This document shows positions 2,301 to 24,632 of a stretch of DNA of 64,000 bases, one piece after another. The translations under genes and the position numbers were made by a program. This DNA is from an uncultured bacterium (GTDB taxonomy: Bacteria; Patescibacteriota; Minisyncoccia; Phycocordibacterales; GWA1-40-21). How positions within the stretch are numbered: position 1 is the stretch's first letter; each line of letters starts with the position of its first letter. The stretch lies in the NCBI GenBank assembly GCA_903831305.1, contig CAIKXE010000004.1, positions 9,026 through 73,025 on the forward strand, given 5' to 3'. The notes below the pieces were generated by a model. The model was not told the DNA's origin. It did not search any database and saw only the letters and a program-made list of their open reading frames with translations.

Positions 2301-2367
2301 TAGGTGATTATAGCAAAAATTTCATCTAATGACTTAAAAACATAAGAAATAGATACCCAAAATTCTA

Positions 2368-5199: not shown

Positions 5200-5237
5200 A
5201 GTAATAACTATAACATAAAATATGCTATAATATTAGT

Positions 5238-7357: not shown

Positions 7358-7391
7358 CCTAAAATTATACCATAAAATAAAAATTATATGG

Positions 7392-10298
7392 CTAGTTACG
7401 AACACAGCGGACAGAAAAACCATAATCTTTATCATGAGTGCTATTACGCTCAATAGTGGGTAGGCCTGACTCTAATATACGTGACCAGGCCCTGTTATTA
7501 CCATTCGGAGTAGATGACCAGATATAGGCGGCCGAATCCAAAAAGTTAAATCGGCTCGTATTTGTTGAAGGATAACGGTAACCAGACAGAAGAGCCTTAA
7601 ACAGTCCTACCCCTGATTTTAAAGTAGTACCCTCATTTGTTCCGCGATCGCCGGTGGTAGTCGTATCATAAGGAAAATCCGTAGTGCAAGTCCCTGAAGT
7701 ACAAACCGTCCGTTCCAGAGTGGTAAACTCCTCATGAGTAGGGATATGCCAGCCGGCCGGGCAGAGACCTTGGGTCCCGGGTGTCGTTATGCCACACATC
7801 GCCTGAGTCCACTGATATAAACCACCGTCACTGGTACAGTTGCTTTCAGTGTTACTATAACAATATTTTCTGATTGTGGTGCAGGTATTATTTTGATTAC
7901 TAGTAGCTGAAATAATAGTTCCGACATTTATATTTTCCGCCATCCAGCATTGGAGACCAATCAAGTTTATAGCGTAAGATTTGCCGTCTCTCGTATCCAA
8001 GGTAGTTCCACTACAATTTTCTAGCCAAACAGCGTATAAGGTACTACTAGATACACCCATGCTATATGTCCCCGTATCAGGATAAGCGATACTTCCTATT
8101 GTACTGGTGGCCCAACCAGCAAAGAAATATCCATCTCTGGTAAAACTGTTAGCAGTCAAACTTGCTTCCTCCCCGGTTACTATTATTTGAGGGGTCATGA
8201 CTCCCGTACCACCATTAGCATTAAAAGAAACAGCCGGACCCAGAGCCACCCACTCGGCATATAGGGTCACATTAGAGGCACCAATAATGAAGGCTGAGGA
8301 AGTGGCACGGCTAGTACCAGTACCATCAAGTGAAGTATTCCAACCAGAAAAATAATAACCGGTCCGAGCCAGATCCTCAGTGTTATCAAGGACCGTCACA
8401 ATATCACCTACTTCATAAGCATTGTGATCTACCGGGACAAAACCTCGAGTGTTACTGTTACCACTATAAGTGACCGTATAAACACTGACTGGGGTATATT
8501 CACTGGGAGTAAAAGCGATTTCTCTTTGTTGCCATGAGCTATTAATATTTATAGTCTCGCTCACGGGCTGATAGTCAGCCTTGGCCAAAGACAAATTATA
8601 ATTACCAGACAAAAGACCAGTAAAGAAAACCTGGCCGGGTGGTACACAGTCCGAGGTAAAGGTAAACGACACATCTGAAACCGTGGGCGTTTTAGTCAGA
8701 TCCGCCGTTTGTAAAAATATTTTATAACGTAAATAGCGGTCTCCATCATGATTTGAGTTTATCTCTTGACTGGTCACCGTATAAAAAGTGTCAGCCGTAC
8801 CATCTGGTCCCTTAAAATTCCAAACTTCACCACCACTATTGGTCGCCACTTGAAGCCGAATACTATCCAATCCCGTCTCCGCTGGCTGATCCTCTGGCTG
8901 CCACGAAATTTTATGAAAATTACTAGCTGACCCCGTATCAAAAGTAGAGGAGATAAGCCAAGTAGAAGTGGCATATTCACCCAAGGTGCTTTTTAGTTTA
9001 ATGGTTCCACCAAAACTAGAAATATCCGCATTACCGTCGGAGTCAAAATATTTGGCCGGATCAGAAAAATGGTCTTGACCAGCTCCACCAGCCCAATCCG
9101 TCTGACGTAAAAAGCCTCGGCCAGTAATGTAGGTCGTATCATACTCTGCCCCGGTCAGATTTACCGCTACCTCAGAAAGAGGCAGCCCCGTGGAAACATC
9201 TTTAACCGTGATAAGCAAGCTCTGCGGACTCTTAGGGCTAAGAATCAGCTTGACGGTCTGGATAGTATCAGGGCTCAAGGTAAAAGTATTGGCCGGAATA
9301 ACCCCAGCCAGATCATAAGTATCATCTGTCGTGGTTAGCTTGTAGGTATCCCAATCTAGGCCGGTGATACTTTCCTCCCCAGCACTATCAGTCGTAAATA
9401 AATCATCAAATTTGTAAATGTCCACTCCAATCAGTTTTTCACCGTGCAAAGAAAAATCAAAATTTGGCACAACCAAACAAGTATCACTGACGCTTGATAT
9501 CTGGAGAGTACTGGCTTTATCTATAAAAAAACTAATTTGGGTCAATTGTTGGAGACTGACCGTGGCATGGGTTTTGACCGGGTTTGGGTTAGCTGGCTCG
9601 CCGACGGGATATGTCCGCTCGGTAGTATAACCATCTTTAGAAACCGTTATCTCATAGACCTGTACCCCGGGTGGGGCATCCACAATCTGTAGCAAACCAT
9701 CATTATTAGTCACATCATCAATGACAAAGCTTGGCACAACACTATTATTTTCCACGTGGACGGAAGCACCCGGTAAGGGCACGCCATTGGCATCAAAAAC
9801 CTTGATAAACAAGGCGCCGTTAGTGGAAGCACTTTCCAGATTTTTAGGACCAATATAAGTAGTCACATTTATCGGAGGGAAATTACGGCATAAAGCACAG
9901 GTTATCTCTAATTCGGCTAATTTATAATCCGCTGGTGAGGTATCATTGACCATTCCACCGAGCTCCCCGTCAAAGGGGTCATCAATGTTTCTGATAGTTG
10001 TTATAACGACAAATTCCTTACCGTCACGAATCAAAGTCTGAGTATAAGGGATCTTGCCGGGGGGCAGGCCTCCAGCGATACCGACATCAGCATAAGGCAG
10101 ATTCCGCATTATTTCAAACTGTTCATTGGCCAAAGCAGTAGCGGTCACTTTTATACGCGAAACCCGTATTACGTCCATTGCTAATTTGTAACCCTGATAA
10201 ACAGAGAGCGCCAAAATAACAAAAATAGCACTACCAACTAAGACCTCTACCAAAGTCATCCCTTTATTTTTTACTCTAAAAAAATTTAACTTGAACAT
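7392..10298 (-). CDS. Pseudopilin/pilin N-terminal domain protein with B-repeat and a C-terminal Fibrobacter-succinogenes-major-paralogous (FISUMP) domain; putative pilus-displayed adhesin
   Basis: 968 aa. N-terminus KNKGMTLVEVLVGSAIFVILALSV is a prepilin-type leader. YSGNSNTRGFVPVDHNAYEVGDIVTVLDNTEDLARTGYYFSGWN is a Listeria-Bacteroides repeat. The C-terminus CWMAENINVG...DGGLYQW...CPAGWHIPTHEEFTTL...YRY...YIWSST matches the FISUMP consensus. Confidence 0.65.
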   Translation of the reverse strand: MFKLNFFRVKNKGMTLVEVLVGSAIFVILALSVYQGYKLAMDVIRVSRIKVTATALANEQFEIMRNLPYADVGIAGGLPPGKIPYTQTLIRDGKEFVVITTIRNIDDPFDGELGGMVNDTSPADYKLAELEITCALCRNFPPINVTTYIGPKNLESASTNGALFIKVFDANGVPLPGASVHVENNSVVPSFVIDDVTNNDGLLQIVDAPPGVQVYEITVSKDGYTTERTYPVGEPANPNPVKTHATVSLQQLTQISFFIDKASTLQISSVSDTCLVVPNFDFSLHGEKLIGVDIYKFDDLFTTDSAGEESITGLDWDTYKLTTTDDTYDLAGVIPANTFTLSPDTIQTVKLILSPKSPQSLLITVKDVSTGLPLSEVAVNLTGAEYDTTYITGRGFLRQTDWAGGAGQDHFSDPAKYFDSDGNADISSFGGTIKLKSTLGEYATSTWLISSTFDTGSASNFHKISWQPEDQPAETGLDSIRLQVATNSGGEVWNFKGPDGTADTFYTVTSQEINSNHDGDRYLRYKIFLQTADLTKTPTVSDVSFTFTSDCVPPGQVFFTGLLSGNYNLSLAKADYQPVSETININSSWQQREIAFTPSEYTPVSVYTVTYSGNSNTRGFVPVDHNAYEVGDIVTVLDNTEDLARTGYYFSGWNTSLDGTGTSRATSSAFIIGASNVTLYAEWVALGPAVSFNANGGTGVMTPQIIVTGEEASLTANSFTRDGYFFAGWATSTIGSIAYPDTGTYSMGVSSSTLYAVWLENCSGTTLDTRDGKSYAINLIGLQCWMAENINVGTIISATSNQNNTCTTIRKYCYSNTESNCTSDGGLYQWTQAMCGITTPGTQGLCPAGWHIPTHEEFTTLERTVCTSGTCTTDFPYDTTTTGDRGTNEGTTLKSGVGLFKALLSGYRYPSTNTSRFNFLDSAAYIWSSTPNGNNRAWSRILESGLPTIERNSTHDKDYGFSVRCVRN

Positions 10299-10348: not shown

Positions 10349-10975
10349 ATGAAGAGTTCTTGGCCTAAAAAAAATAATCTTCAAGCTGGTTTTACCCTTA
10401 CCGAGATTTTAGTCGTTTCCTTTATCCTAGTCATTGTTGGCATAGCAATTGTCAACTTTCAAATAGATCTTTTCTCTTTAAACAAAGTTTCCAGTGATAA
10501 TATTGTAGTCCAAGAAGAAGCCAGAAGGGTACTCAAGGCCCTCACGGCCGAGGCCCGCGGTATGTCACCCTCCAATATGGGGGCATATGCTTTAGCCGAG
10601 ATTGGCACTTCTACAATTACCTTTTATACCAATACAGATAATGATACACTCCAAGAACGTGTCCGCTACTTTTTGGCTGGTACTACCCTTAAAAAAGGTG
10701 TCATTGAGCCAACGGGTACTCCGCTAACTTACAATACAAATAATGAAGTGATACGTGAGGTAGTGCACGACATAGCCAACGGTACAACTTCTATTTTCAC
10801 TTTTTTTGATACTAATTATGACGGCACATCACCCGCTTTATCAGAACCAATCAACCTACCGAGCATCCGTCTAATTAAAATAAACCTCATCATTGATCGT
10901 GACCCACTAAAGTTGCCGGCTCCTTTATCTATGACGACACAAGTATCTATGCGTAATCTCAAAGACAATCTATGA
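10349..10975 (+). CDS. Minor pilin / pseudopilin-like protein (prepilin N-terminal domain)
   Basis: LQAGFTLTEILVVSFILVIVGIAI is a G|FTLxE prepilin motif. At 208 aa it is the size of PilW/GspJ-like minor pilins. Confidence 0.6.
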   Translation: MKSSWPKKNNLQAGFTLTEILVVSFILVIVGIAIVNFQIDLFSLNKVSSDNIVVQEEARRVLKALTAEARGMSPSNMGAYALAEIGTSTITFYTNTDNDTLQERVRYFLAGTTLKKGVIEPTGTPLTYNTNNEVIREVVHDIANGTTSIFTFFDTNYDGTSPALSEPINLPSIRLIKINLIIDRDPLKLPAPLSMTTQVSMRNLKDNL

Positions 10976-12393
10976 TTATAAAAAAAATAAAAAAACGGGG
11001 CTATATTCTGATACAAGTAATTATCTTTGCTTCTATTTCTACTTATATTCTAGGGGCCCTGATCAGCTGGGCCGCCACTGATATCAAAGCCTCCAAACAA
11101 GCGGCTGACCGCGAGCTTGCCATCCAGATAGCTGAAGCCGGCATTGATTATTATCGTTGGCATTTAGCACATGCCCCGACAGACTATCAAGACGGCACTG
11201 AGCAAACCAGCACCTATATCCATGATTTTTTAGATAAAAATGGCACAGCCATCGGTCAATTTGCTCTAGATATTACACCGCCACCACTTGGATCAAGTCT
11301 AGTAACCATCAGATCCACTGGCAGTGTTTTAAAGACTCCAAATCTGACAAGGACGATTCAGGTCAAGTTAGCCAAGCCATCTATGGCCAAATTTGCCGTA
11401 GTGGCCAATGACTACATGCGCTTTGGAGAAGGAACGGAAGTTTTTGGTCCGATTCACTCTAACAAAGGTATTCGTTTTGATGGGCTAGCCCACAACATAG
11501 TTTCCAGTTCTGTCATTACGGCTAATGACCCGGACCATACAGGCAATGAAGAATTTGGGGTCCACACCCATGTCACTCCCACTGATCCTCTGCCACCGGC
11601 CAGTATACCAGACCGCTCAGATATTTTTGAAACCGGCCGGGCCGTGGGTATATCAGAAACTGATTTTGATGGAATTACTGGTGATATCTCTCAAATAAAA
11701 ACTCTAGCTCAGGAAGCAACTGGTTTTTGGCGCGCGGGCTCTGGTGCTTTAGGCTATCACGTAATACTGAAAACCAATGACACTTTTGACCTCAAACAAG
11801 TAAACACCATCACAACTGTGAGTTCCTGCAGTGAAAAATGGAGTATCGGCACGGAAACTCTTTTGGGTAATTTTCCTTTCCCGGCTAACGGGATAATATT
11901 TTTGGAAGACCATATTTGGGTGGATGGTAAGATAGATAGTGGCAAGCTCACCATCGTCGCGGCGACTCTACCAGAAAACGCCTCCACCTTGAGAAACATT
12001 ATAGTTAATAATGATTTATTATATACAAAATATGACGGTACGGACGTTATTGGTCTAATTGCTCAGAATAATATTTTGGTTGGTCTTGTTAGTGAGGATG
12101 ATTTACGAATCGATAGCGCCCTGATGGCTCAAAAGGGCAAAGTGGCTAGACTCTCATACAGCCAATCTTGTTCCTCAACTTATTATACGCGCCAGACCAT
12201 TACTCTGTGGGGCATGATTGCCTCCAATGTCAGATATGGTTTTGCTTGGGTTAATATTTCAACTAATCAGTTTATCTCCGGATATGTTAATCGTATTTTA
12301 TATTATGATAGTAATCTACTCTACAGCCCACCACCGAGCTTTCCCCTCACTTCAGACCAATATGTCACTCTCTCTTGGGAGGAGATAAAATAA
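10972..12393 (+). CDS. Pilus-assembly-associated protein (PilX-like N-terminal hydrophobic segment), hypothetical
   Basis: 473 aa. One N-terminal TM segment (GYILIQVIIFASISTYILGALIS). It overlaps the upstream minor pilin by 4 nt, which suggests translational coupling. I recognise no catalytic motifs. Confidence 0.45.
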   Translation: MIIKKIKKRGYILIQVIIFASISTYILGALISWAATDIKASKQAADRELAIQIAEAGIDYYRWHLAHAPTDYQDGTEQTSTYIHDFLDKNGTAIGQFALDITPPPLGSSLVTIRSTGSVLKTPNLTRTIQVKLAKPSMAKFAVVANDYMRFGEGTEVFGPIHSNKGIRFDGLAHNIVSSSVITANDPDHTGNEEFGVHTHVTPTDPLPPASIPDRSDIFETGRAVGISETDFDGITGDISQIKTLAQEATGFWRAGSGALGYHVILKTNDTFDLKQVNTITTVSSCSEKWSIGTETLLGNFPFPANGIIFLEDHIWVDGKIDSGKLTIVAATLPENASTLRNIIVNNDLLYTKYDGTDVIGLIAQNNILVGLVSEDDLRIDSALMAQKGKVARLSYSQSCSSTYYTRQTITLWGMIASNVRYGFAWVNISTNQFISGYVNRILYYDSNLLYSPPPSFPLTSDQYVTLSWEEIK

Positions 12394-12476: not shown

Positions 12477-13703
12477 TTACACATTATCCATCACGGAGTA
12501 GATCGGCGCCACCATAGATAGAGCAAAGAAGCCCACCGCCGCCCCAATAATGACCATGAGTACTGGTTCAATAATCGTAGAGAGATCTTTGGTTCTTTCC
12601 TCCACATCTAGTTCATAAAAAATAGCTACCTCAGTCAGCATATTGGACATATTTCCTGTCTCCTCCCCCACGCCCATCATCTCCCCCACAAAGGTCGGAT
12701 AATACTTAGGATTTTTCATAAAAATTGCTGAAATATTTTCTCCCTTCTCCACCGCCTTAGAGGCATCGTCTAGCACTTGCTTATAATAATGGTTTGTTAC
12801 AATATCTTTGGTAATCAAAATAGATTGAGCAATGGGGACGCCCGCCGTCAAAAGTGAGGCCAACGTTCTAGCTACCCGAGCCGAGTTAGCCTCCATAATC
12901 AAGTCCCCCACTACTGGTAATCTGATGACTAAATAATCCCTTAGATTTTTACCCATCATAGTTTTTAAAAAGAGATAAGTACCTGAGACCGCACCAATAA
13001 TAAATAAAATAGTTAAAATCCAGTGCCCCACCAAAAAGTCACTAAGTCCAATGATAACCCGGGTGGTAAAAGGTAATTCTGTATTTAGCTCCTTAAAAGT
13101 AGCAGTAATCCCTGGCACCACAAAGATAAACATCAGTATCCCGACGATGATCATCACAGTCACAATCACCGCTGGATAGATCATGGCTCCCTTTACTTTT
13201 TTCTGCAAACGGTAGGTCTTATCCATTTGCAAAGCCACATTACCCAAGGCATCAGACAAGCCACCGCTCTCCTCACCGGCCTTGGCCATAAAAATAAAAA
13301 GATTGGAAAAAATATTTGGATAACCCCGGAGTGATTCACTTAAAGTTTTACCTTTTTTGATTTCAAGATTAATACCTTCTACAATATTTTTTAGCCGGCC
13401 GGGCTTGCTCTGTCTTTCAATTACTGATAAGGCTCGGCTCAGGGACAGTCCAGACCTGGTCATCGCTGATAAATTTTTTGCAAAAGAAATCTTTTGGGCG
13501 ATGGAAACACCACCCAAGAAACTGAAAATTTTATAAAAATATACCTGCCATTTGGTATGGCTGATTTCCTTAGCTGAAATCAGAACACTACCCTCGGCCT
13601 TGAGGTCATTATATAAGTTAAATTTGCTTTGGGCTTCAACCACCCCTTCGTAACGCTCACCACTTTTTTTTATAGCGCTGAATTTAAAATGCATTTTATT
13701 CAC
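12477..13703 (-). CDS. pilC: Type IV pilus assembly platform protein PilC / T2SS GspF family
   Basis: 408 aa. Duplicated GspF domain architecture with three TM segments. It overlaps pilB by 8 nt. Confidence 0.85.
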   Translation of the reverse strand: MNKMHFKFSAIKKSGERYEGVVEAQSKFNLYNDLKAEGSVLISAKEISHTKWQVYFYKIFSFLGGVSIAQKISFAKNLSAMTRSGLSLSRALSVIERQSKPGRLKNIVEGINLEIKKGKTLSESLRGYPNIFSNLFIFMAKAGEESGGLSDALGNVALQMDKTYRLQKKVKGAMIYPAVIVTVMIIVGILMFIFVVPGITATFKELNTELPFTTRVIIGLSDFLVGHWILTILFIIGAVSGTYLFLKTMMGKNLRDYLVIRLPVVGDLIMEANSARVARTLASLLTAGVPIAQSILITKDIVTNHYYKQVLDDASKAVEKGENISAIFMKNPKYYPTFVGEMMGVGEETGNMSNMLTEVAIFYELDVEERTKDLSTIIEPVLMVIIGAAVGFFALSMVAPIYSVMDNV

Positions 13704-15453
13704 TTATTACCCGAAGCACTTCCTCGATCGTCGTTACCCCCTGGACCGCTTTAAAAATACCATCTTCAATCATACTGATCATCCCCTCTTTTTTAGCCTG
13801 CTCGTTTATTACATGGTCAGGCTCGCCCCGCACCACGAGTTCCTTGATAGTGGGAGTCATCTTTAGCACCTCACAGATACATACCCGCCCACCATAACCA
13901 TCTTTGGATTCAGCTGACTCCTTTGGTTTATAAAAAGGAATAGTTTCGATCGTTTCTTTATCTCCAATTATTTTTTCCTTCTGCAAAAACTCCAGCACCC
14001 GTTTAATATCAATAATCTTGGCCAAGGAGGCTACTTCAGATTTTGACAAAAAGTATTTTTCTTTATTGGCACTTAACCGACGAATGAGCCTTTGAGCAAT
14101 AATCACCTTCACCGTTGAAACAATGAGAAAAGGCTCAATCTTCATGTCCACCAGACGGGGCATAGCCCCAGCCGCCGAATTAGTGTGTAAAGTGGAAAGA
14201 ACCAAGTGCCCAGTCAAAGCCGCATTAATAGCCAGAGAAGCCGTTTCATTATCACGAATTTCTCCGACCATGATGATATCTGGATCCTGACGAACTAAAG
14301 AACGCAAACCATTGGCAAAAGTAAAACCAATTTCTGGTTTGACCTGGGTTTGGTTTATCCGATCCATCTGATACTCTACCGGATCTTCAATGGTAGAAAT
14401 ATTCACATCAGCGGTATTTAAAATATCAAGCAAGGTATAAAGCGTGGTCGTTTTACCGGAACCAGTGGGACCGGTTGTCAATATAAGACCGGTAGTCTGC
14501 TTGATCGCCTCATGTAAAATTTCTAAGGCCTCACCATGAAAACCCATGGCTTCCAAAGTAAAACCAGAAACATTTTCTCGTAACAATCGCATAACCGCCT
14601 TCTCACCAAAATAAGTCGGCAAGATAGAAACACGAAAGGATACCCCCTCTCCATTCACCTCCATTTTAAACCGGCCGTCTTGAGGCAAGCGCTTTTCATC
14701 TAGCTTCAAACTGGCGAGTACTTTGATTCTAGCAATGATACTAGAGGCCACACTTTTTGGCAAAACCATAGCGTCATGCAAAATACCGTCAATCCGGTAA
14801 CGGATCAGTAATTCGTTCTCCAAAACTTCAATGTGAATATCAGAAGCATTTTGTAGAATGGAGTGCTTGAGCAAAGTATCCAAAATACGAATCACCGGTA
14901 AATCCTCTGCCATCTTCTTCAAATCTTCCCCCGTACTACCTACTCCCCGATTATCAATCAGACTCTTAAGCGCCACCGCATCTTTCTGAATAATGTCACC
15001 AAACTCCGCCCGTAAACTTTTCTGATATTGTAACAAAGCGCTTTTGATAGAGTCACTATCTGTCAAACGCAATAGTATTTTCAAGCCAACCTTCTTTTTT
15101 ATAAACTCAATAGATGATAGATCCTTGGTATCAAGCATGGCCACTTCCAAAGTATCACCCTCGCGCCTAAAAGCAATAGCATTATTTTTTCTGGCCACTG
15201 GTTCAGGGATCAACGCTAAAATAACCGGATCAATTTTTTGCCCTTTCAGACTGACAAACGGAATACCTAGGACGTAAGCCTCAGCCCGCCGAAAATCATC
15301 CTCGCTAATCTTGGCATTGTTTATGAGCACGTGGCCAACGGTCAATTTATTTTTACTCCTGCCGGCTTCAGCCATAGCATTTTCATAATCTAGTTCAGTA
15401 ATTAAACCAGAGTCTAAAAGAAATTCCTTGAGCTGCTTTTCTTGAACGATCAT
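13696..15453 (-). CDS. pilB: Type IV pilus assembly ATPase PilB / GspE family
   Basis: 585 aa. Walker A LILTTGPTGSGKTTTLY, a GspE N-terminal domain, and Asp/His boxes. Confidence 0.85.
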   Translation of the reverse strand: MIVQEKQLKEFLLDSGLITELDYENAMAEAGRSKNKLTVGHVLINNAKISEDDFRRAEAYVLGIPFVSLKGQKIDPVILALIPEPVARKNNAIAFRREGDTLEVAMLDTKDLSSIEFIKKKVGLKILLRLTDSDSIKSALLQYQKSLRAEFGDIIQKDAVALKSLIDNRGVGSTGEDLKKMAEDLPVIRILDTLLKHSILQNASDIHIEVLENELLIRYRIDGILHDAMVLPKSVASSIIARIKVLASLKLDEKRLPQDGRFKMEVNGEGVSFRVSILPTYFGEKAVMRLLRENVSGFTLEAMGFHGEALEILHEAIKQTTGLILTTGPTGSGKTTTLYTLLDILNTADVNISTIEDPVEYQMDRINQTQVKPEIGFTFANGLRSLVRQDPDIIMVGEIRDNETASLAINAALTGHLVLSTLHTNSAAGAMPRLVDMKIEPFLIVSTVKVIIAQRLIRRLSANKEKYFLSKSEVASLAKIIDIKRVLEFLQKEKIIGDKETIETIPFYKPKESAESKDGYGGRVCICEVLKMTPTIKELVVRGEPDHVINEQAKKEGMISMIEDGIFKAVQGVTTIEEVLRVISE

Positions 15454-15557: not shown

Positions 15558-18500
15558 CTAAAATTCTGAATTTGATCCACCGCTCTCCACAACCGTGACA
15601 GAAGGATTATTACTACAATAAGCGACCTTAGTACCATCAGTTACCTTAGCGGTTACTGTATTTAGTCCCGTGGTCCTTAAGAAATAATAATATGTATTAT
15701 CAGTACTTGAGCCAGAAATCGGTGTGCCGTGCGGATTGGCCACCGTAATAGGATTATTTCTATTAATTATATACCAAGAGTATTGATACGTCCCGTCTGG
15801 CCCATAGACAGTAGCGGTCCAAAGGGAGTTAGAACCTCGATTGATGATGGGTGAGCTTGGGCTAGTTAATTCCACAGTACAGCTCAAGTCACTTCCTGGG
15901 ACACCCGAGCAATAAGAAATAGTCGTTCCTTTAGTACAAGTCCAATCCCCACTAATATATGGTGATTGGGAGGGGGTAGCACCCCCTATACATTCACCAG
16001 CAGTAGAGCTACAATAATCACCCTCATCCGGATTACCACCGCAGTTCTCGGTACAAGAGACCTCACAAGCTGGACAACTACCACCACAATCCACATCAGT
16101 TTCGTTACCATTTTTTTGACCGTCAGTACAAGTTGGAGACGGTGGAGTGGTAACACTCAAATTAGGACAACCAGCACTTAAAGTTTCAGTTCCACTATTA
16201 ATAGTGGAAGTAGCGGTATAATTCTTAACAGAAGTATAGGAAGTATTAACGACACTGGTAGTAGCACCATTAATATTCGTCCCTGCCCAAAGATAAGTAT
16301 ACGCTCCAATTCCACCAGTAGAGGTAGCGGTCCAAGTGACGGTTTGACCAGTAAGAGCAGTAGCTGGAGTGACAGAACAAGAAGCAGTAAGATGATCCCT
16401 AACTATAACATTGTTTTCGCTAGCACTATTAACACAGTTAGCTGAAGAAGTTTCCGTCCCCCTTGTGATTGTAGCAATACCATAATATGTTCCAGCGGTG
16501 GCATATGAGGTGGTGACGATGGCGGTGTTCTTGCCTGTCAAATTTGTACCGGCCCAGCTATAGGTATAGGCTCCGACTCCACCAGTAGAGGTAGCGGTCC
16601 AGGTCACAGTATCACCAGTGAGGACAGTAGCTGGAGCAACGGTACAGGAGACGGTAAAGGTTCCTGATTTGGTAGCTGAACAAGAAACTTCATTCCCTTG
16701 ATTAGCACAGGTCCAGCTCCAAGAATCAGTACCATCCGAGACGACACCTGAGGTACCAATACTACATTTTTCCGCCAGGGTGCTTGGGGCAGTGGTTCTC
16801 GTAGTCCCATTTGCACTACCACAAGAAGGATAAACGACTGGTGGTGGGGTAAAGGTTGCATTTATTGTGGTGTTAGTATTCAAAACAAAACCACAACCAC
16901 CAGTACCCGTACAACCACCGCCAGACCAACCCTGAAAGGAAGCACCACTGTCAGGTGTAGCTGTTAAAGCAATAGTTGTGCCGACGGGGAAAGTCACGAC
17001 ACAATCCGTAGCTGCAGGTCCACAGAGAATCATGGTGGTGGCGTCAGAGACAATACCGGGGCCAACTCTGTTTATACTCAAAGTCGCGGTTTCCGGAACT
17101 ACAACAGCCGAAGCCGAACAGGTGGAAACATAACAATTATTACTACAAGACCAAGTCCAAGGTCCAGTAGAACCTCCCACCACAGCACTTGCCGTACCAA
17201 TATCACATTTTTCTGTATCAGTATTTGGGGCGGTAGTTCTAGCAGTACCGTTTGCACTACCACAATAAGTGTTTGCTGGCTCAGTAGGAGTATCCATGCA
17301 AGCCGAACACTGTGCATTTAAACCACCATATCGCCCATTACAGTCCCATTTATATGTAGCTCCTTCGTCAGCAACATCAACAAAATCTCCTGTAGGACAA
17401 GTGTCTTTTGGCACACCACAAGTACCATCCACACCGTTAGTCTGTATCTCACAAGAAGAAGTAGCTGTTTTATTATTTACCGAATCTATAACTTTTATGT
17501 TAGCGATGTACTTGGTCGTGCCAGTGACAATATTCTGCAAGAAAGTGGCTGAAGTAGAACTCAGATCACCATTCCAGAAATAATTTGGATTACCGGTGTT
17601 ATAAGAGGTAGCCAGCCAAGAAATCTTTCCACTTGGAATATTTAACGGATCATCATAATATCTAGTACCAGAACAAGAAACCGTTGGGTCTGGAGTAATA
17701 GTCACATGATTATCACATGAAACGGTATATTCATTGGCATCCTGATCAGTCACTGTCACTTGACCATAATAGTCATCAGCCTCAGAGTATGAAGTAGTGG
17801 CGGCAGCGGAGTTGTTGCCAGTCAGATTAGGGCCTACCCAGCTATAAGTATAATCCCCAACTCCCCCAGTAGGAGTAGCCGTCCAAGTGACTGTCTCACC
17901 AATGGCCGCCGTAGATGGACTAACCGAACAAGAAGCTAAAAGTGGGGCCGCCGGGAAAGTCGTACTACAAGATGAAACGTAGCCAGCCGAGGAACATGTC
18001 CATGTCCAAGGAGCATCAATGCCACCAGTGATATCACTAGGGATACCGACTCTACATTTTTCTTCATTAGTGCTTGGAGCAATAGCTGTGGTGGTGGCAT
18101 TAAAAGTACCACAATAAGCAGGTGGTGGTACAGGTGGTGGCGTGACAGTACAAGTCACACTACTTGTTACTTCAGTACAAGTCCAATTCCAAGGACCGTT
18201 GGCATCACCATTTATAGCACTAGCAATACCGACCTGACACTTTTCTTCAGCCGTGTCTGGAGGAGTAGAACGGTCAATACCAGCCGGACGTACCTCATCA
18301 GCAACAGTACCACAGGCAGGATTACAAGGGTTTGATGGTGCACCGAACACCCCTACTGATAGAGCGGACTCTTTAGCTCCTAGATATGAACTGACCATGA
18401 ATAAATCAGTGGCTGAAGACGTGGCGGTGGTAGAAGTGGCGGTAGTGGTAGCGATGCGATTTGTCCCCTTGTAAACGTAATAACCGGTAACACCAGGGAC

Positions 18501-21500
18501 GGTACTCCACCTAATGGTGGTATAACCACCACACTGGCCAGCCGACTCGGCAGTAATAGTAGTAGGTGGACAAGGGGCCGAAGGCACACCATGGACAGCA
18601 CTAGATGATGTAGACTCCTGAGTGCCGAGATATGATCTGACAGTAAAGGTATCAGTGGTGGAGGCCAATAGTGTATAGGCAAGAACGGGCGTAGTAACAA
18701 GAGGGGTGGTCTCAGTACCACGATAGACTTTGTAACCAGTAGTTCCAGGAACTGGGCGCCAAGAAAGAGTGGTGTACCCGCCACACTGGGCAGCAGTGGC
18801 GACAAGGCTAGTTGGCGCCCCAAGATTAAATTGAGCAGTAACAGTAGTGGAGGTACTCATAGTAAAGGTACAAGTGAGAGCTGTTCCACTGCAGACTCCT
18901 CCCTGCCAACCGACAAAAATATGACCAGCGGTGGAGGTGGCAGTGAGAGTGACGGTAGTACCATTAATAACCGAAGTAGAAGTAGCTAAACAAGTTGCCC
19001 CGCAGATAACTCCTCCACCAGACACTGTACCAGTTCCCGTTCCAGTTTTGGTGACAGTTAGGGTAGAGGTACAAGGTCCTGAAGGAACTGCGGTTGCCGA
19101 ACTCGAAAATGCAGACTCTGCATTACCATTGTCAACGGCTTTAACTCGAAAAGTTTGTCCAGCTGTACTACTTGCCACATAAGAAATGTTGACAGTATAA
19201 CGAAGAAGTGTAAAAACAACATCGTTACTACTGACATAGATATTGTATCCTTTAGCACCAGGAATAGTGCCCCAGTTTAGAGAAATATTTCCCCCGCAAG
19301 AGGCAGAAGTAGTAGCCGTAAGATTAGGTGCTCCAAGGCCAAACCTGGCAAAAACAGTAGTGGTTGTACTCATAGTAAAGGTACAAGTAAGAGCTGTGCC
19401 ACTACATCCCCCTCCTGACCAGCCGACAAAGGCACTACCAGTAGTAGGGGTGGCCGTGAGAGTGACAGTAGTACCATTAATAACCGAAGTAGAAGTCGCT
19501 AAGCAACCGGCTCCGCAAGAGATTCCTCCACCAGACACTGTACCAGTTCCCGTTCCGATTTTAGTGACGGTTAGGGTAGAGGTACATGAAACAGAAGGGA
19601 TAGGTGATACTGAGTTTGAGGCGAGTGACTCGGTTTGACCAACATCAACAGCCTTAACTTGAAAATATTGTCCAGTGCTACTTGCTATGTAAGAAGTGGC
19701 GGGAGTCTCATAAAGAGGAGTAAAAACCACGCCATCAATACTTTTATAAATATGATATCCAGCTGCTCCGGGTATAGCGTCCCAGTTTAAAGAAATGTTT
19801 CCCCCGCAAGAGGCAGAAGTAGTAGCCGTAAGATTAGGTGCTCCAAGGCCAAACCTGGCAAAAACAGTAGTGGTTGTACTCATAGTAAAGGTACAAGTGA
19901 GAGCGGTGCCACTGCACCCCCCTCCAGACCAGCCGATAAAAGTGTTTCCAGGAATTGGATTAGCGGTGAGTATAATATCAGCACCAGGAATTACGGTAAT
20001 ACTTGCATTCTTACAATCGGCATCACAATTAATTACTGGAGTAACAGGAATACTAGAAGTACTGGTGACCAAACCAGTTCCAGATGATCCACTTTTACTA
20101 ACAGTTAAGACAGGGTATGGGAGAGAACAGGTAGTACTGGCACCGCCATACTGACCATTACAAGTCCAAAACGAAGTATCAGCAGTGTCTTCCGTATTAG
20201 TAAAAGTGCCTTCAATAGCACAGGTATTTACAACCAACGGCAGACTACAAGCACCAGCGACGGGAACGGGACAAGGAGCTGATGGCACACCATTTACAGA
20301 ATTTGATGATACAGATTCTTGAGTATCAAGATATGATCTGACAGTAAAAGTATCCGTAGTAGAGGCTAATAGAGTATAGCTAGTAACCGTGGTGGTAACG
20401 AGAGGGGTGGTTTCCGTTCCACGATAGACTTTGTAACCAGTAACACCAGTAACCGGCTGCCAAGAAAGAGTGGTAAAGCCTCCACACTGACCTGGGGTGG
20501 CTTGGGCGGTGAGCGAACTAGGTGCAGAAATAGTTTTATACTGACAATTACTAACAATGGCTGGACAGATAAAAACTTCCGACCAAGTACCACCTACGTT
20601 TGTTATTGTCTCCGAACAAGCAATACCATTTGGAGGAATTTTCCCAGCACAGGGAATATAAGGATCTATTACTACTTCACAAGTAGAAGACGCCGAAATT
20701 GAGGAACTATCAGTAGCGGTTACTTCAACAGTATAACGAGTCTTGGTCTGACTATTATATTCCTGCCAAACAGTATTCAATGAATCACCAGGGAGACTAT
20801 TGAGCAAGCTTGTTGGATCACCCTTCCACGTATAGGTGTAAGGAGCGTCTCCATTGGAAGCAGATGCCGTCCACTGAAGAGCATCACCATAATTTTCATC
20901 ATATGAAGACTTACCTAAATACGAACAACTAACATCAAGCCCAGGCCCAACGACAACTTGATTTGAACAGTTACTAAAACTTTCCTTATTTGCCTGATCA
21001 ATCACTTTTACAGAAAAAGCATATGTCCCAGGAGTAGAATAAACAATAGTGGTATTTGCGCTGCTAGTCGTGGCCATTTCTAAACCACTACGCTCATCTG
21101 TAAAGCGATACCGGTATGGAGCTGTTCCATCTGTAGCCACAGCCGTCCAGGTAACCAGTTGCCCCACCTTAGCTGAAGACCTGTTTGCGGAACAAGAAAC
21201 TTTAGGGCTAGGAATAGGGGTAGGGGTAATGATACACGGAGCGGAAGGCACAGCAGTAGCAAAATTGGAAAAGGGTATGTTAGCCGGATCTACTCCCGTT
21301 ATTAGTGGTTTAATGGCAAAGGAGTCTCCAATGACCGCATTTAACTCATATGAAATACCCGTTACTGTAGAAACAAAAACGGTTCCCGACGCATTTTTTT
21401 TATAAACCTGATAACTTGTTATACCCGGAACAGAATTCCAGTTTAAAATAACAAAACCATCACAAACGTCAGATGTTTTTGCCCTAATCTCTACAGGTGG

Positions 21501-24500
21501 AACAACTGTAAATTTGATATAGCCCTTTCCCCGAGCCACTGTCTGCCAAATTTTAGATTCAAACGTCTCCCAATTTATCTCCACAAATTCAGGTACATAC
21601 CACTGATTATCTACTTGTAAAAGAATATAATACACACCAGGAGTAGATGGAGCAATAAAAGATGCTCCTTGTTTTTCTAAAGAAAAATTATTACTATTCC
21701 AACCTTTTGGACAATCAAACCCCTCGCAACCACCTCCTTCATAGCGCCCATTGTTTATAATATAAGTTTCTTTATTATAAGGGTCAGTACCTACGGGAGA
21801 AGAAGACTGTAAAATATCTGATCTTTTAATAACTAATTGTTGAGGAGCATTACTACAAGCATAGCTTGATAAACTACCGGTAATATAAAACTCTTCATTT
21901 GGTGAAAGGATGAGCTGAGGAGCCGTTATGGTCATGGTTGTCACATTTCCACCGATATTATAAGCTGTATTAGAAGTCCAGACCACACTATTGGCACTAG
22001 CACTATCAAACGCCAAGAAAGAAGAAATCAGAACTAACACAAAAACTAATATAGTTTTCATCTCCTTTCTTTTTCTAAAAATATAAACACTGATAGACAA
22101 AATAATAACAGACAGAACGCCGAGTAAATAAAAGATGGCTTTACTTGTCGTCTGGGTATTCCCAGTCACCTCATTAGTATAGGTCGTGATAATATTATCA
22201 TTATCATCAGTCACTTTTATATCAATAAATATATTTTGTGCAGAAGCTTTTGCCTTTAAGGAAATGTCCAAAGAGATACCTTTGTTAAAATCTAATTTTC
22301 GGCTATAAGCAGACACAATTTCCTTGTTTTCGTTTAGAATATTTATAAACAGATTAAGTGGATTTTCTTTTACTGTCGGACCTAGATCAATATCCAGTGG
22401 GGCTCCGGTATAGACCATGTTAAAATTATAAGTATCCCCAACCTTCAAAATATTTTTGTTCAATGAGACAGATTGGATAGCTGCCACTGACCCCGTCACA
22501 ATGTATCTTGCTAAAACAGTCGGAGTGACTTTAATAGCATCTGAGTTTAAAAAATCAACGGACAGCTCATAAACTCCTGACTTGTCTAAATATGAAATCC
22601 CCCACTGAAATAGTTTTGTAGTACTGGCAGAAATAGTTATAGGATCAAGCCTATAACTAGTAATCAAATTCCCCGATACGGTCCGATCATATATTTTAAT
22701 CTCAGGGGTTAAAACCTGTCCCGTAGTAAAAGGATTCTCTACATTTATGTAAAGTGTTCCTTTCTTATCTGGGGAGAGAGTCGGCCCCTCCTGCAATCCA
22801 TATTTTTTCTCTCCTATCGTTAGATAAGCATCACTGACCTTTAAAAGTGAGTTATCCCCAGTAACTTCAATAAACTTATCCTTCCAAGACAAAGGCATGC
22901 CGGCCGCAGTATAAAACTGAATTTGAATACCTAAGGCTTTTCCTGAAAAGTTAGTCGGCAGTAAATAACTAAAATTAATTTGTTTCATTTCTCCCGCCTT
23001 TAGAAAAACCGGGCCGTATGACTTACTATCATAAATGACGCCCGCCAAACCGTTTCTCCGATACTCCCCAGCCAAAGAAACCGTATATTTTAAATCTGGC
23101 AAATTATAGTCCTTATCATTTTTCAAAGTAAAAGTTCCTGTTACTTCTTCACCAGCGGAATATTTATCCTTGGGCAGAGAAATATTTTTAATCTCCACTG
23201 ATGGCAGATTATTCAGCTCCGCTATCTCAGCCGGAGTAGCCTGAACTTCATAAGTGTCACCATTATTGGTTTGAGCCAAGACCGTATTAGCTGAAAAAAT
23301 TAAACTGCAAGACACTCCAATAAACAAAAATGTTTTCAGCATTTTATTTTTTTTATAAAACACACTGATAATAATTATTGCTAATAAAACCAAAAGCCCT
23401 AACGCCCATAAAACACCAGGAAAGCCGGTCGAAACGTTATTGCCTGTTATTTCGTGATTATAAGAGGTAATTTTGTCACCCTTGGCATCGGTCACTACCA
23501 CATTTACAAATACCCTGCTAGCACCAGCATTAGCGGTCAAAGGAACTTCTAATACGACTCCTTTATTAAAATCTAATTTACCATTATAGCTTGATACGAG
23601 GCGAGCCTCCTCATTCAAAATAGTAACTGATACATTGAGTACATTTTCCTTAAGAACAGAGGGTTGATCTATATCTTTTGGTATTCCCGTATAAACCATC
23701 TTAAAATTAAACTCCTTACCAGATTTTAAAGTATTCTTGTCTAGAGTGATCTGCTGAATAGTGGCCATCGGTCCGCTGATAACATATTTGACCAAGGTGG
23801 TCGGTGCTACTTTCACTTTTTGGCTGTTATAAAAGTTTACGGCCACTTCATAAATACCAGGCTTATCTAAATATGAGATTTCCGAGGAAAAAGATTTTGT
23901 ACCCCTAGCAGAAATTGTAAATGGTTTTAAAGTGGTGGTTTTAAGCAATGCCCCCATGGCTGATTGGTCATAGATTTTAATTTCGGGGGTGAGGGTTCGT
24001 TCCTGATTAAAAGGATTTTCCAGCTTTACATTTATTACCGCTTTCTTAGTGGCTGACAAAGTCGGCCCTGATGATACAGAATATTTATTATTCCCAATAT
24101 TAAGATAAGCATCAGCTATTTTCATCATTGAGTTTCCACCTGTTACTTCAAGAGGTTTATCCTTCCAAACCAAAGGTAGCCCGGTAGAGGTATAGAGCTC
24201 TATGCGGAGTCCCAAGTTTGACCCAGCTACATTACTTGGTAACAAATAACCAAAACTAATTTCTTTTGTTTCACCAGACTTCAAAAAAACAGGACCGTAA
24301 AACCGGCTATCGTATATTTCTCTCGCCAGACCATCAGCCCCATACCCGCCTACTAAAGATATCTGGTATTTCAAATCAGGAATGCTGTAGCCTTTAATAT
24401 TTTTAATAACAAATACTCCCGCTACTCCTTCGCCTTGAGTATAGGTAGATTTGGCTGGAGAAATATCTTTGATCTCAATTACGGGCAGACTGTCTGTCTT

Positions 24501-24632
24501 GGCCAACTCCTCTAGAGTGGTTTGCACCAAATCCATATTTCGGTTTACTGTCTGGGCTGAGGCGCTAGGGAGAAAAAAGCCAGACCCCAACAAAACCAAA
24601 GCCAAGACAGAGATCAAGAGAAGTTTTTTCAT
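15558..24632 (-). CDS. Giant (3024 aa) polytopic surface protein: two paralogous modules of about 430 aa, then a module of about 2170 aa with FN3-like, PKD-like, B-repeat-like and Cys-rich WxWTC repeats
   Basis: A single uninterrupted frame. The N-terminus MKKLLLISVLALVLLGSGFFLPSASAQ is a signal peptide. There are internal TM + KKNK/RKRKE + signal-like segments at residues of about 415-450 and 845-880. PKD-like units carry (T/V)TWTAT.TGG.G.YTY.W. FN3-like units carry GYK(V/I)Y. The DGQKNGNETDVDCGGSC motif is present. Confidence 0.7.
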   Translation of the reverse strand: MKKLLLISVLALVLLGSGFFLPSASAQTVNRNMDLVQTTLEELAKTDSLPVIEIKDISPAKSTYTQGEGVAGVFVIKNIKGYSIPDLKYQISLVGGYGADGLAREIYDSRFYGPVFLKSGETKEISFGYLLPSNVAGSNLGLRIELYTSTGLPLVWKDKPLEVTGGNSMMKIADAYLNIGNNKYSVSSGPTLSATKKAVINVKLENPFNQERTLTPEIKIYDQSAMGALLKTTTLKPFTISARGTKSFSSEISYLDKPGIYEVAVNFYNSQKVKVAPTTLVKYVISGPMATIQQITLDKNTLKSGKEFNFKMVYTGIPKDIDQPSVLKENVLNVSVTILNEEARLVSSYNGKLDFNKGVVLEVPLTANAGASRVFVNVVVTDAKGDKITSYNHEITGNNVSTGFPGVLWALGLLVLLAIIIISVFYKKNKMLKTFLFIGVSCSLIFSANTVLAQTNNGDTYEVQATPAEIAELNNLPSVEIKNISLPKDKYSAGEEVTGTFTLKNDKDYNLPDLKYTVSLAGEYRRNGLAGVIYDSKSYGPVFLKAGEMKQINFSYLLPTNFSGKALGIQIQFYTAAGMPLSWKDKFIEVTGDNSLLKVSDAYLTIGEKKYGLQEGPTLSPDKKGTLYINVENPFTTGQVLTPEIKIYDRTVSGNLITSYRLDPITISASTTKLFQWGISYLDKSGVYELSVDFLNSDAIKVTPTVLARYIVTGSVAAIQSVSLNKNILKVGDTYNFNMVYTGAPLDIDLGPTVKENPLNLFINILNENKEIVSAYSRKLDFNKGISLDISLKAKASAQNIFIDIKVTDDNDNIITTYTNEVTGNTQTTSKAIFYLLGVLSVIILSISVYIFRKRKEMKTILVFVLVLISSFLAFDSASANSVVWTSNTAYNIGGNVTTMTITAPQLILSPNEEFYITGSLSSYACSNAPQQLVIKRSDILQSSSPVGTDPYNKETYIINNGRYEGGGCEGFDCPKGWNSNNFSLEKQGASFIAPSTPGVYYILLQVDNQWYVPEFVEINWETFESKIWQTVARGKGYIKFTVVPPVEIRAKTSDVCDGFVILNWNSVPGITSYQVYKKNASGTVFVSTVTGISYELNAVIGDSFAIKPLITGVDPANIPFSNFATAVPSAPCIITPTPIPSPKVSCSANRSSAKVGQLVTWTAVATDGTAPYRYRFTDERSGLEMATTSSANTTIVYSTPGTYAFSVKVIDQANKESFSNCSNQVVVGPGLDVSCSYLGKSSYDENYGDALQWTASASNGDAPYTYTWKGDPTSLLNSLPGDSLNTVWQEYNSQTKTRYTVEVTATDSSSISASSTCEVVIDPYIPCAGKIPPNGIACSETITNVGGTWSEVFICPAIVSNCQYKTISAPSSLTAQATPGQCGGFTTLSWQPVTGVTGYKVYRGTETTPLVTTTVTSYTLLASTTDTFTVRSYLDTQESVSSNSVNGVPSAPCPVPVAGACSLPLVVNTCAIEGTFTNTEDTADTSFWTCNGQYGGASTTCSLPYPVLTVSKSGSSGTGLVTSTSSIPVTPVINCDADCKNASITVIPGADIILTANPIPGNTFIGWSGGGCSGTALTCTFTMSTTTTVFARFGLGAPNLTATTSASCGGNISLNWDAIPGAAGYHIYKSIDGVVFTPLYETPATSYIASSTGQYFQVKAVDVGQTESLASNSVSPIPSVSCTSTLTVTKIGTGTGTVSGGGISCGAGCLATSTSVINGTTVTLTATPTTGSAFVGWSGGGCSGTALTCTFTMSTTTTVFARFGLGAPNLTATTSASCGGNISLNWGTIPGAKGYNIYVSSNDVVFTLLRYTVNISYVASSTAGQTFRVKAVDNGNAESAFSSSATAVPSGPCTSTLTVTKTGTGTGTVSGGGVICGATCLATSTSVINGTTVTLTATSTAGHIFVGWQGGVCSGTALTCTFTMSTSTTVTAQFNLGAPTSLVATAAQCGGYTTLSWRPVPGTTGYKVYRGTETTPLVTTPVLAYTLLASTTDTFTVRSYLGTQESTSSSAVHGVPSAPCPPTTITAESAGQCGGYTTIRWSTVPGVTGYYVYKGTNRIATTTATSTTATSSATDLFMVSSYLGAKESALSVGVFGAPSNPCNPACGTVADEVRPAGIDRSTPPDTAEEKCQVGIASAINGDANGPWNWTCTEVTSSVTCTVTPPPVPPPAYCGTFNATTTAIAPSTNEEKCRVGIPSDITGGIDAPWTWTCSSAGYVSSCSTTFPAAPLLASCSVSPSTAAIGETVTWTATPTGGVGDYTYSWVGPNLTGNNSAAATTSYSEADDYYGQVTVTDQDANEYTVSCDNHVTITPDPTVSCSGTRYYDDPLNIPSGKISWLATSYNTGNPNYFWNGDLSSTSATFLQNIVTGTTKYIANIKVIDSVNNKTATSSCEIQTNGVDGTCGVPKDTCPTGDFVDVADEGATYKWDCNGRYGGLNAQCSACMDTPTEPANTYCGSANGTARTTAPNTDTEKCDIGTASAVVGGSTGPWTWSCSNNCYVSTCSASAVVVPETATLSINRVGPGIVSDATTMILCGPAATDCVVTFPVGTTIALTATPDSGASFQGWSGGGCTGTGGCGFVLNTNTTINATFTPPPVVYPSCGSANGTTRTTAPSTLAEKCSIGTSGVVSDGTDSWSWTCANQGNEVSCSATKSGTFTVSCTVAPATVLTGDTVTWTATSTGGVGAYTYSWAGTNLTGKNTAIVTTSYATAGTYYGIATITRGTETSSANCVNSASENNVIVRDHLTASCSVTPATALTGQTVTWTATSTGGIGAYTYLWAGTNINGATTSVVNTSYTSVKNYTATSTINSGTETLSAGCPNLSVTTPPSPTCTDGQKNGNETDVDCGGSCPACEVSCTENCGGNPDEGDYCSSTAGECIGGATPSQSPYISGDWTCTKGTTISYCSGVPGSDLSCTVELTSPSSPIINRGSNSLWTATVYGPDGTYQYSWYIINRNNPITVANPHGTPISGSSTDNTYYYFLRTTGLNTVTAKVTDGTKVAYCSNNPSVTVVESGGSNSEF
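18780..20160. repeat. Intragenic tandem DNA repeats (period about 519 bp; 2 full copies plus partial copies) inside the giant gene
   Basis: 19264-19420 and 19782-19940 are more than 95% identical (cccagttta.agaaat.tttcccccgcaagaggcagaagtagtagccgtaagattaggtgctccaaggccaaacctggcaaaaacag...). 18790-19100 is a more diverged copy. These encode the repeated protein unit of about 173 aa, GAPNLTATTSASCGGNISLNW...TLTVTK.GTGTGTVSGGG..CGA.CLATSTSVINGTTVTLTAT. Confidence 0.8.

Follow-up and report, generated by a model that had tools for sequence, protein, structure and literature searches.

An in-frame transmembrane hairpin conserved in a family of predicted patescibacterial surface proteins suggests a secreted polyprotein processed by signal peptidase I

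Introduction

The FbcH precursor of cytochromes b/c1 from Bradyrhizobium japonicum is a polyprotein that is reported to be processed at an internal signal peptide located after transmembrane (TM) helices. With Clostridioides difficile, the precursor SlpA is cleaved into two S-layer subunits that remain bound to each other non-covalently. The Patescibacteria, or candidate phyla radiation (CPR), are obligate epibionts, and their machinery for attachment to the host is largely unknown. Among enveloped viruses, the glycoprotein polyproteins of bunyaviruses (Gn/Gc) and flaviviruses (prM-E) are cut by the signal peptidase of the host (PMC5113920, PMC7926653). The subject of this report is a gene of 3024 codons carried by a 64,000-nucleotide stretch of DNA from an uncultured patescibacterium (GenBank assembly GCA_903831305.1, contig CAIKXE010000004.1, positions 9,026 to 73,025), hereafter called the window. 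Its product is probably a precursor that is cut by signal peptidase I into two membrane-anchored modules of immunoglobulin (Ig)-like domains and an anchorless, adhesin-like passenger.

A single open reading frame with two internal junctions

The gene is a genuine single open reading frame (ORF). One frame runs from an ATG start through positions 15558-24632 of the minus strand and encodes 3024 residues without a break, as had been claimed in an earlier reading of the same DNA that was made from its letters and without database searches (the sequence-only reading). The exact protein has been recorded from several samples and sources (ENA, JGI, NCBI), the biggest contig being 217 kilobases long, and the DNA of a MEGAHIT contig from a different sample (L001), which was the one other contig read for comparison of the identical-protein records, is identical to that of the window over the whole gene. 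The final ~170 nucleotides of L001 (13100-13277) diverge from the window by 41 differences, all within pilB, and look like a strain-chimeric contig end. The other long ORFs of the window are intact and encode ordinary housekeeping domains, and there is no sign of an assembly prone to homopolymer errors.

The sequence-only reading had described, at each of two junctions within the frame, a hydrophobic helix and a KK- or RK-rich patch followed by a Met and a new signal-peptide-like segment, and both the DNA and the Kyte-Doolittle hydropathy profile bear this out. At junction 1, the codons TAT AAA AAA AAT AAA ATG CTG encode ...SVFYKKNK/MLKTFLF (Met codon 23342-23340), and at junction 2, AGA AAA AGA AAG GAG ATG AAA encode ...YIFRKRKE/MKTILVF (Met codon 22061-22059). 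Five strongly hydrophobic segments were identified (residues 4-22, 407-425, 435-453, 833-851 and 860-878), with no segment above the threshold in the other ~2100 residues of the protein. The two N-terminal modules, of 430 and 427 residues, align end to end with 48% identity (E 3e-143), which upholds the full-length paralogy that had been proposed for them.

A family with a conserved transmembrane hairpin

A profile of the protein core (A1) was searched against 1.84 billion protein representatives clustered at 50% identity, yielding 1458 matches at E <= 1e-3, 919 at <= 1e-10 and 314 at <= 1e-30. The family-wide counts given here rest on the best 150 of the 1458 matches (149 junctions; 151 proteins in scans with local hidden Markov models, HMMs); most of these proteins are 750-1800 residues long, with a single alignment that runs on through the hairpin. 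Each of the two window modules gives a match to positions 1-373 of the module HMM, and the HMM of the domain that follows the hairpin (dom) matches 71 of the 151 representatives. Pfam and NCBIfam recognized no family in the modules, giving sub-threshold noise only, and a literature search found no published description of the family. The name given in IMG, 'predicted membrane channel-forming protein YqfA (hemolysin III family)', found no support in the sequence, whether from Pfam or from NCBIfam. The profile matches indicate that the window gene belongs to a large, unnamed and undescribed family of cell-surface proteins of the Patescibacteria (CPR). The layout predicted for this family comprises a signal peptide, a ~380-residue module of three Ig-like domains, a stop-transfer TM helix, a short basic loop expected to be cytoplasmic, a second, signal-like helix, a beta-sandwich, variable adhesin-like repeats and a C-terminal domain ending in Glu-Ile/Phe. 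The ~380-residue module, the hairpin (here twice) and the C-terminal domain with its penultimate Glu are all present in the window protein.

Four orthologs, P0001-P0004 (751-1227 residues; 47-56% identical by BLASTP and 48-52% in the core alignment), are each a single chain with a signal peptide, one module, a TM helix, R/KKNK, a second helix ending in ASA, and a conserved domain of ~170 residues. The sequence SASA/NS around the predicted cut is kept in P0001, P0003, P0004 and P0006, and reads ASA/S in P0002. The ortholog loops aligned to RKRKEMK are RKNKGLK, RKNKAVK, KKNKAMK and RRNKTVK; given that the column of Met858 holds L, V, M and V in P0001-P0004 (preceded by G, A, A and T), the Met of the window protein is incidental. 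A scan of genome contigs returned a single locus, in a metagenome-assembled genome of Candidatus Taylorbacteria; the protein encoded there (36% identity) is fused through a junction that has no Met (...FVFRGSIKKRILSLFLVLFFVLGCCQGANAG/IITW). Since orthologs carry junction 2 in frame, and mostly without a Met, it is judged to be ancestral and conserved in the family, and not a lesion of this genome.

The succession TM-loop-TM was called in 140 of the 149 family junctions, and two more were under-called by the regular expression. The loops are short (median 6 residues) and basic (net charge +2 or higher in 137 of the 140), in keeping with the positive-inside rule for turns on the cytoplasmic side. 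A median of 22 residues separates the loop from the best -3/-1 site for signal peptidase, which has Ala at -1 in 115 of the 140 junctions and Ala or Val at -3 in 119; Phe, Tyr or Trp is often found at +1, and Thr at +2. When sites were scored with a crude, self-made -3/-1 rule, strict A-x-A was present at 53% of junctions, compared to 11% of random control windows from the same proteins and 48% of the proteins' own N-terminal signal peptides. The apolar core is shorter in the second helix than in the first (median 17 versus 19 residues; Wilcoxon p 9e-10), and in the window protein the second helices have cores of 14-15 residues and the first helices cores of 19-21, the predicted sites being VLA/Q and ASA/N. 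This combination, which gives the second helix the anatomy of a Sec/signal peptidase I signal peptide, is supportive of cleavage but not conclusive.

The predicted structure agrees with this division of the chain. An AlphaFold2 model of residues 431-1046, built from a 64-sequence alignment (predicted local distance difference test, pLDDT, 84; predicted template modelling score, pTM, 0.80), has three beta-sandwiches, a hairpin of helices 401-424 and 426-443 (model numbering), and a fourth beta-sandwich (strands 454-613). An earlier model from 6 sequences was poor (pLDDT 67, pTM 0.41).

Split forms

Five representatives (P0056, P0094, P0104, P0123 and P0149) stop right behind the basic tail of the first TM helix, and at the loci of P0056, P0094 and P0149 the adjoining gene opens directly with a Met, followed by basic residues, a hydrophobic helix and A-x-A. 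One such contig, L008, holds tandem split pairs (2054-8334), a 426-residue module with an 863-residue passenger and then a 437/448-residue module with a 982-residue passenger. The break reads AAT AAA TAA T ATG in the first of these pairs and ATA TAA ACA ATG in the second, where the stop and the following start share a frame, so that one substitution would fuse the genes; in L009 the two genes share an ATGA overlap, and in L013/L014 they overlap by 8 nucleotides, an arrangement seen in at least 5 contigs. Comparison of loci in relatives, of the kind that the sequence-only reading had put forward as a check, returned both states, and the family as sampled is a fused majority with a split minority that is broken exactly at the predicted cytoplasmic loop. 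The existence of the split forms implies that each half can act as a polypeptide of its own and that the internal helix is homologous to bona fide N-terminal signal peptides. The Lys/Asn codons of the loop are rich in A, and it is plausible that single-base slips make or remove a TAA or TGA beside the ATG, and that lineages have in this way switched repeatedly between the fused and split states. The suggestion of the sequence-only reading that tandem genes were fused in frame through stop-codon loss thus holds on an evolutionary scale, as the family moves between fused forms and versions that are split at the loop, but not as a lesion of this genome, as the orthologs are fused in frame.

Origin of the two-module form

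Among the 151 proteins scanned with local HMMs, the order module-module-dom was found in the window protein only; P0005 is an N-truncated copy of it. When module 1 was searched by itself against word-indexed proteins, nothing more closely related turned up, and as the word-indexed searches gave 4 and 1 matches, their sensitivity limits the finding that no second protein has two modules. The modules of orthologs share 54-60% identity with module 2; module 1 is 45-51% identical to anything, its nearest relative being module 2, and its Kimura distance to outgroups is ~1.5 versus ~1.1 for module 2. In a neighbor-joining tree, the two window modules are sisters, with module 1 on a long branch. In the sequence of junction 1, KKNK-MLKTFLFIGVSCSLIFSANT-VLAQ/TNNG, the first part is similar to ortholog junction helices (e.g., RKNKAVKT...FSANT of P0002) and the last part to the c-region of N-terminal signal peptides (...SAQ/T), which weakly suggests that the junction is a chimera of an ortholog-type junction helix and a signal-peptide c-region.

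These comparisons point to a lineage-specific tandem duplication of the module in the window gene, with module 1 appearing as the faster-evolving paralog. Junction 1 most likely arose by tandem duplication within an already fused gene and not by the joining of separate genes. Duplication in frame of a module together with its TM helix, loop and signal-like helix would have produced two hairpins and three ectodomains; the fused gene had two signal-peptide-like segments, and unequal exchange between these could have been the route, after which the N-terminal copy would have diverged faster.

Proposed processing of the precursor

Given the order of these segments, each ectodomain is proposed to be exported in turn by Sec, with a TM helix stopping transfer, the basic loop remaining in the cytoplasm, and the next helix restarting export. 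Signal peptidase I would cut after A26, A453 and A880. The first two products, Q27-A453 (starting QTVNR) and Q454-A880 (starting QTNNGDTYEVQATPAEIAELNNLPSVEIK), would each be 427 residues long, with three Ig-like domains and a C-terminal helical hairpin in the membrane, while the third, N881-F3024 (starting NSVVWTSNTAYNIGGNVTTMTITAPQ), would be an anchorless, Cys-rich passenger of 2144 residues. Non-covalent contacts, with the modules or with the type IV pilus of the neighboring genes, may keep the passenger on the cell surface. Production from a single ORF would fix the stoichiometry of modules to passenger, here at 2:1. Membrane topology, cleavage, retention of the passenger and an adhesin function are what we infer from the features of the chain, and the case for cleavage, which rests on sequence features, is considered somewhat better than even.

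Several observations weigh against this interpretation. The relaxed -3/-1 rule also fits 76% of control windows, and second-helix cores with a median of 17 residues are long for signal peptides, such that they may form stable TM helices. A cleaved passenger of 2144 residues would have no recognizable anchor, and its retention is a matter of speculation. Fold searches provided generic Ig-like matches and no functional clue; with the 6-sequence model, Foldseek retrieved from the PDB only multi-Ig arrays of low template modelling score (complement, alpha-2-macroglobulin MG domains). By Pfam (E <= 0.01), neither a PilY1 beta-propeller nor a vWA domain was found in module 3. No pilus genes lie near the family members of L008, L011 and L013, and two of the contigs that do have such genes, L012 and L015, share synteny and are not independent observations. 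As to the module duplication, modules 1 and 2 group as sisters with a bootstrap value of only 54%, which is too low to date the event.

Alternative explanations

That the protein stays uncleaved is possible, if doubtful. After removal of its N-terminal signal peptide it would then be one polytopic chain with three ectodomains and four TM helices in two hairpins, and the small residues past each second helix would only mark the start of the next beta-sandwich. Such a chain would account for the way in which an otherwise anchorless giant passenger stays on the cell, the second-helix cores can span a membrane, both helices form a tight hairpin in the AlphaFold2 model, and the hairpins are conserved, with loops that obey the positive-inside rule. 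However, strict A-x-A is five-fold more frequent past the second helix than in control windows, and is as common there as in the N-terminal signal peptides of these proteins; compared to the first helix, the second is consistently the shorter one; and where the gene is split, this helix serves as the N-terminal signal peptide of a secreted protein in its own right, so that function does not depend on a covalent link. Of the four-TM reading offered in the sequence-only reading, the hairpin was found to be conserved across the family, but the single uncleaved chain is disfavored by the signal peptidase I features of the second helices. Three processed polypeptides, rather than one four-TM protein, are considered the likeliest outcome.

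Internal initiation at Met431 and Met858, which would provide modules 2 and 3 as separate proteins beside or in place of the full chain, is very unlikely. An ATG is followed by a signal-peptide-like sequence at both junctions, and AAGGAG precedes the second ATG, but these six nucleotides are Lys-Glu codons with zero spacing to the ATG. The sequence-only reading was correct in citing this spacing against an independent start of module 3: P0001, P0002 and P0004 have Leu or Val at the position of that Met, P0003 alone having Met. Most orthologs lack a junction Met (L or V being in its place and G, A or T before it), only 29 of the 140 family junctions have a Met in the loop region, and there is no upstream stop codon for ribosome release and re-initiation.

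That three genes were joined by homopolymer indels or recent stop-codon loss is weaker still and can be set aside as highly improbable: single-base changes would indeed restore stop/start pairs like those of natural split loci (a ninth A in the A8 run at 23347-23354 would yield ...KKK TAA A ATG, and at junction 2, where an out-of-frame TGA overlaps the ATG, a 1-nucleotide deletion upstream would yield an ATGA overlap), but the exact protein recurs across samples and sources with identical DNA in L001, the remaining long ORFs are intact, the orthologs pass junction 2 in frame and mostly without a Met, 140 of the 149 family junctions are fused, and the out-of-frame TAA at junction 1, rejected as a relic of a split state, is there because the conserved Asn-Lys codons AAT AAA contain it, as they do in the fused orthologs of L002 and L003.

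If the precursor is processed as proposed here, a wider and more tentative hypothesis can be raised: that Patescibacteria make broad use of polyprotein secretion, with units strung in one ORF through TM hairpins and cut apart by signal peptidase I. A membrane 'dock' of Ig-like modules and a giant variable adhesin would be made in fixed stoichiometry, the Glu-Ile/Phe tail of the adhesin would attach to the dock or to the tip of a type IV pilus, and the A-rich loop codons would let lineages pass between fused and split states by single-base slips. This hypothesis is speculative and, at present, is given less credence than cleavage of the window protein itself.

Feature map

The segments of the protein, and the two pilus genes that follow it, are listed in Table 1.

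Table 1. Segments of the 3024-residue protein and the adjoining pilus genes (window coordinates; slashes mark predicted cuts)
Feature	Residues	Position (strand)	Basis or remark
N-terminal signal peptide (MKKLLLISVLALVLLGSGFFLPSASA/Q)	1-26	24555..24632 (-)	Hydropathy peak 4-22; A-S-A at -3 to -1; aligns with ortholog signal peptides
Module 1 ectodomain	27-406	23415..24554 (-)	Three Ig-like beta-sandwiches predicted by homology to module 2
TM helix 1, predicted stop-transfer anchor of module 1	407-426	23355..23414 (-)	Kyte-Doolittle 3.04; 19-residue apolar core
Basic loop 1, KKNKMLK, predicted cytoplasmic	427-433	23334..23354 (-)	Holds A8 run 23347-23354 and Met codon 23340-23342
Internal signal-peptide-like helix 1 (TFLFIGVSCSLIFSANTVLA/Q)	434-453	23274..23333 (-)	Kyte-Doolittle 1.91; 14-residue apolar core; V-L-A before predicted cut
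Module 2 ectodomain, three Ig-like beta-sandwiches	454-831	22140..23273 (-)	
TM helix 3	832-852	22077..22139 (-)	Kyte-Doolittle 2.51; helix 401-424 of AlphaFold2 model
Basic loop 2, RKRKEMK	853-859	22056..22076 (-)	Holds Met codon 22059-22061 and pseudo-Shine-Dalgarno 'aaggag' 22062-22067
Internal signal-peptide-like helix 2 (TILVFVLVLISSFLAFDSASA/NS)	860-880	21993..22055 (-)	Kyte-Doolittle 2.22; A-S-A before predicted cut
Conserved post-hairpin beta-sandwich, ends GYIKFTVVPP	881-1046	21495..21992 (-)	Aligned in all orthologs; dom HMM; AlphaFold2 strands
Variable Cys-rich repeat region (FN3-like, InlB B-repeat, PKD-like, WxWTC)	1047-2924	15861..21494 (-)	Pfam, regular expressions, DNA repeats
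Conserved C-terminal Ig/PKD-like domain, ~100 residues, ends ...VVESGGSNSEF-COOH		15561..15860 (-)	Alignment of last 120 residues of 139 family members
pilB (T2SSE ATPase), directly downstream, same strand		13696..15453 (-)	Pfam T2SSE, E 6e-122
pilC (T2SSF platform protein)		12477..13703 (-)	Pfam T2SSF, E 1e-56

The passenger and its C-terminal signature

The FN3-like, PKD-like, B-repeat-like and WxWTC units that the sequence-only reading had seen in module 3 were recovered with Pfam (cut-off E <= 0.01) and regular expressions. Pfam identified Flg_new_2 (the InlB B-repeat) in four stretches (E 6.5e-17), with weak matches to PKD_4, Y_Y_Y and GH85_C, and regular expressions counted six FN3-like 'LxW..V.G..GY.VY', four 'GWSGGGC', four 'WxW[TS]C' and at least four PKD-like 'VTWTA' units. 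Eighty-five cysteines are found in module 3, versus none in module 1 and one in module 2. At the DNA level, repeats of 233-300 nucleotides with ~80% identity recur 510-513 nucleotides apart at 18568-20501, a period that equals one B-repeat plus one FN3-like unit, and this points to ongoing expansion of the repeats. Genes for thioredoxin and DsbB lie near the family member in L006 (2301-3243), and one for a DsbA-like protein in L011 (87-896), which would fit the formation of disulfides in Cys-rich passengers.

Of 139 family members, 98 have Glu as the last residue but one (EI in 33, EF in 24), and in 67 the chain closes with Glu plus a terminal I, F, L, V, M, W or Y. The tail commonly takes the form '...TTTVVQ.GG...EI' or '...NP.F.EF', that of the window protein being ...SGGSNSEF, and in split loci it sits on the downstream protein; no Glu-Phe type ending was found on the other large secreted proteins of the window. 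That the Glu-Ile/Phe tail serves as a docking signal is a guess. No LPXTG motif is present in the window protein, which has only the loose mid-protein matches IPCAG and VPVAG, and no hydrophobic segment precedes its C-terminus (...NSEF); for want of both, a sortase-anchored LPXTG surface protein was ruled out.

Pilus context

The gene lies directly upstream of pilB and pilC on the same strand, as the sequence-only reading had stated and Pfam confirmed, and no terminator-like site was found in the 104-nucleotide gap before pilB. The family gene is followed by pilB in the window and in L002, L003 and L006; at the locus of P0001 (L002), the order NusA/gene/pilB/pilC is that of the window, and pilB follows the genes of P0003 and P0004, where NusA was not seen upstream. 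In L012, the family gene comes right after three genes with GFTLIE leaders (motif scan) and a fourth, PilX-like ORF; in L015 (1897-11421), tandem family genes (1359 and 1806 residues) are preceded by three small genes, one or more of them encoding a pilin-type leader, and are followed by ligA. The order of pilin-like genes, family gene and ligA is common to L012 and L015, and in L010 a pilin gene precedes the family gene. Judging from its gene content, the window locus is a type IV pilus neighborhood, and the idea of a pilus- or envelope-associated adhesin, raised in the sequence-only reading, gains support from the conserved synteny, from which a role of the protein at the pilus may be proposed.

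Other genes of the window also carry pilin-type features. Divergent from pilC, at 10349-12393 (+), the gene of a 208-residue pilin (GFTLTE leader) overlaps that of a 473-residue protein starting ...KKRGYILIQVIIF, which looks like a degenerate prepilin leader with Gln replacing Glu5 and resembles PilX/GspK; this protein was recognized by neither Pfam nor NCBIfam. Four unusually large 'modular pilins' (7392-10298, 2368-4107, 4189-5199 and 35131-36408, all on the minus strand) combine N_methyl leaders with adhesin- or lectin-type domains: CarboxypepD_reg, Flg_new and Fib_succ_major in the one of 968 residues, Flg_new in that of 579 and Laminin_G_3 in that of 425; those of 968, 579 and 336 residues lie near the family gene. 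N_methyl was matched in the neighboring ORFs 10349-10975, 7392-10298, 4189-5199 and 2368-4107. The window protein itself has no match to N_methyl or to a class III leader (G/F-x-x-x-E), having an ordinary signal peptide instead, and identity as a type IV pilin or pseudopilin was ruled out for lack of the N_methyl signature, unlike several of these neighbors. At 45884-46861 (-), a tyrosine recombinase of the phage integrase family adjoins an NYN-domain gene; it may be XerC/D-like or mark a mobile element.

Comparison with known systems

As in the Listeria-Bacteroides/InlB B-repeat proteins, Flg_new-type repeats are present in the window protein (the four Flg_new_2 stretches of module 3) and in its relatives (Flg_new); here, however, they constitute one interchangeable part of the variable region and do not define the family. 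Like the PilY1/PilC tip adhesins, the window protein is large and predicted to be secreted by way of an ordinary, non-pilin signal peptide, and is encoded in a pilus gene neighborhood. The PilY1 proteins have neither a TM hairpin nor an N-terminal Ig module, and membership of the window protein in the PilY1/PilC family was ruled out by the absence of the defining domain from the Pfam matches. Placement in a minor-pilin operon was observed with the relatives in L012, L015 and L010, whereas the window gene adjoins pilB-pilC instead. The variable, Cys-rich middle region and the frequent type IV pilus neighbors are nevertheless as expected for a host-recognition surface.

With regard to processing, SlpA provides the parallel of one precursor that gives rise, in fixed stoichiometry, to an anchoring subunit close to the cell and a second one exposed further out. 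It differs in being cut by the cysteine protease Cwp84, in having no TM hairpin, and in its anchoring to wall polymers through CWB2 domains. FbcH is a bacterial precedent for one ORF that yields two membrane or periplasmic proteins by a cut at an internal signal sequence; it is a subunit of a respiratory complex and not a surface protein, its unit is neither repeated nor duplicated, and its sequence is unrelated. The viral glycoprotein polyproteins are the nearest working parallel and share the entire predicted order of signal peptide, ectodomain, TM anchor, short cytoplasmic turn, internal signal peptide and next ectodomain within one ORF, the internal signal peptide both restarting translocation and marking the cleavage site. 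The window protein is cellular and bacterial, and would employ Sec and signal peptidase I in place of the machinery of the endoplasmic reticulum; there is no kinship in sequence or fold, the parts being Ig-like modules and adhesin repeats as opposed to fusion proteins, and cleavage here is only predicted. The fused and split variants of the family present a natural experiment on the keeping of genes for interacting secreted partners in one ORF. Should its internal signal peptides be cleaved, the window protein would represent a rare bacterial polyprotein processed by Sec and signal peptidase, a strategy that is otherwise typical of enveloped viruses.

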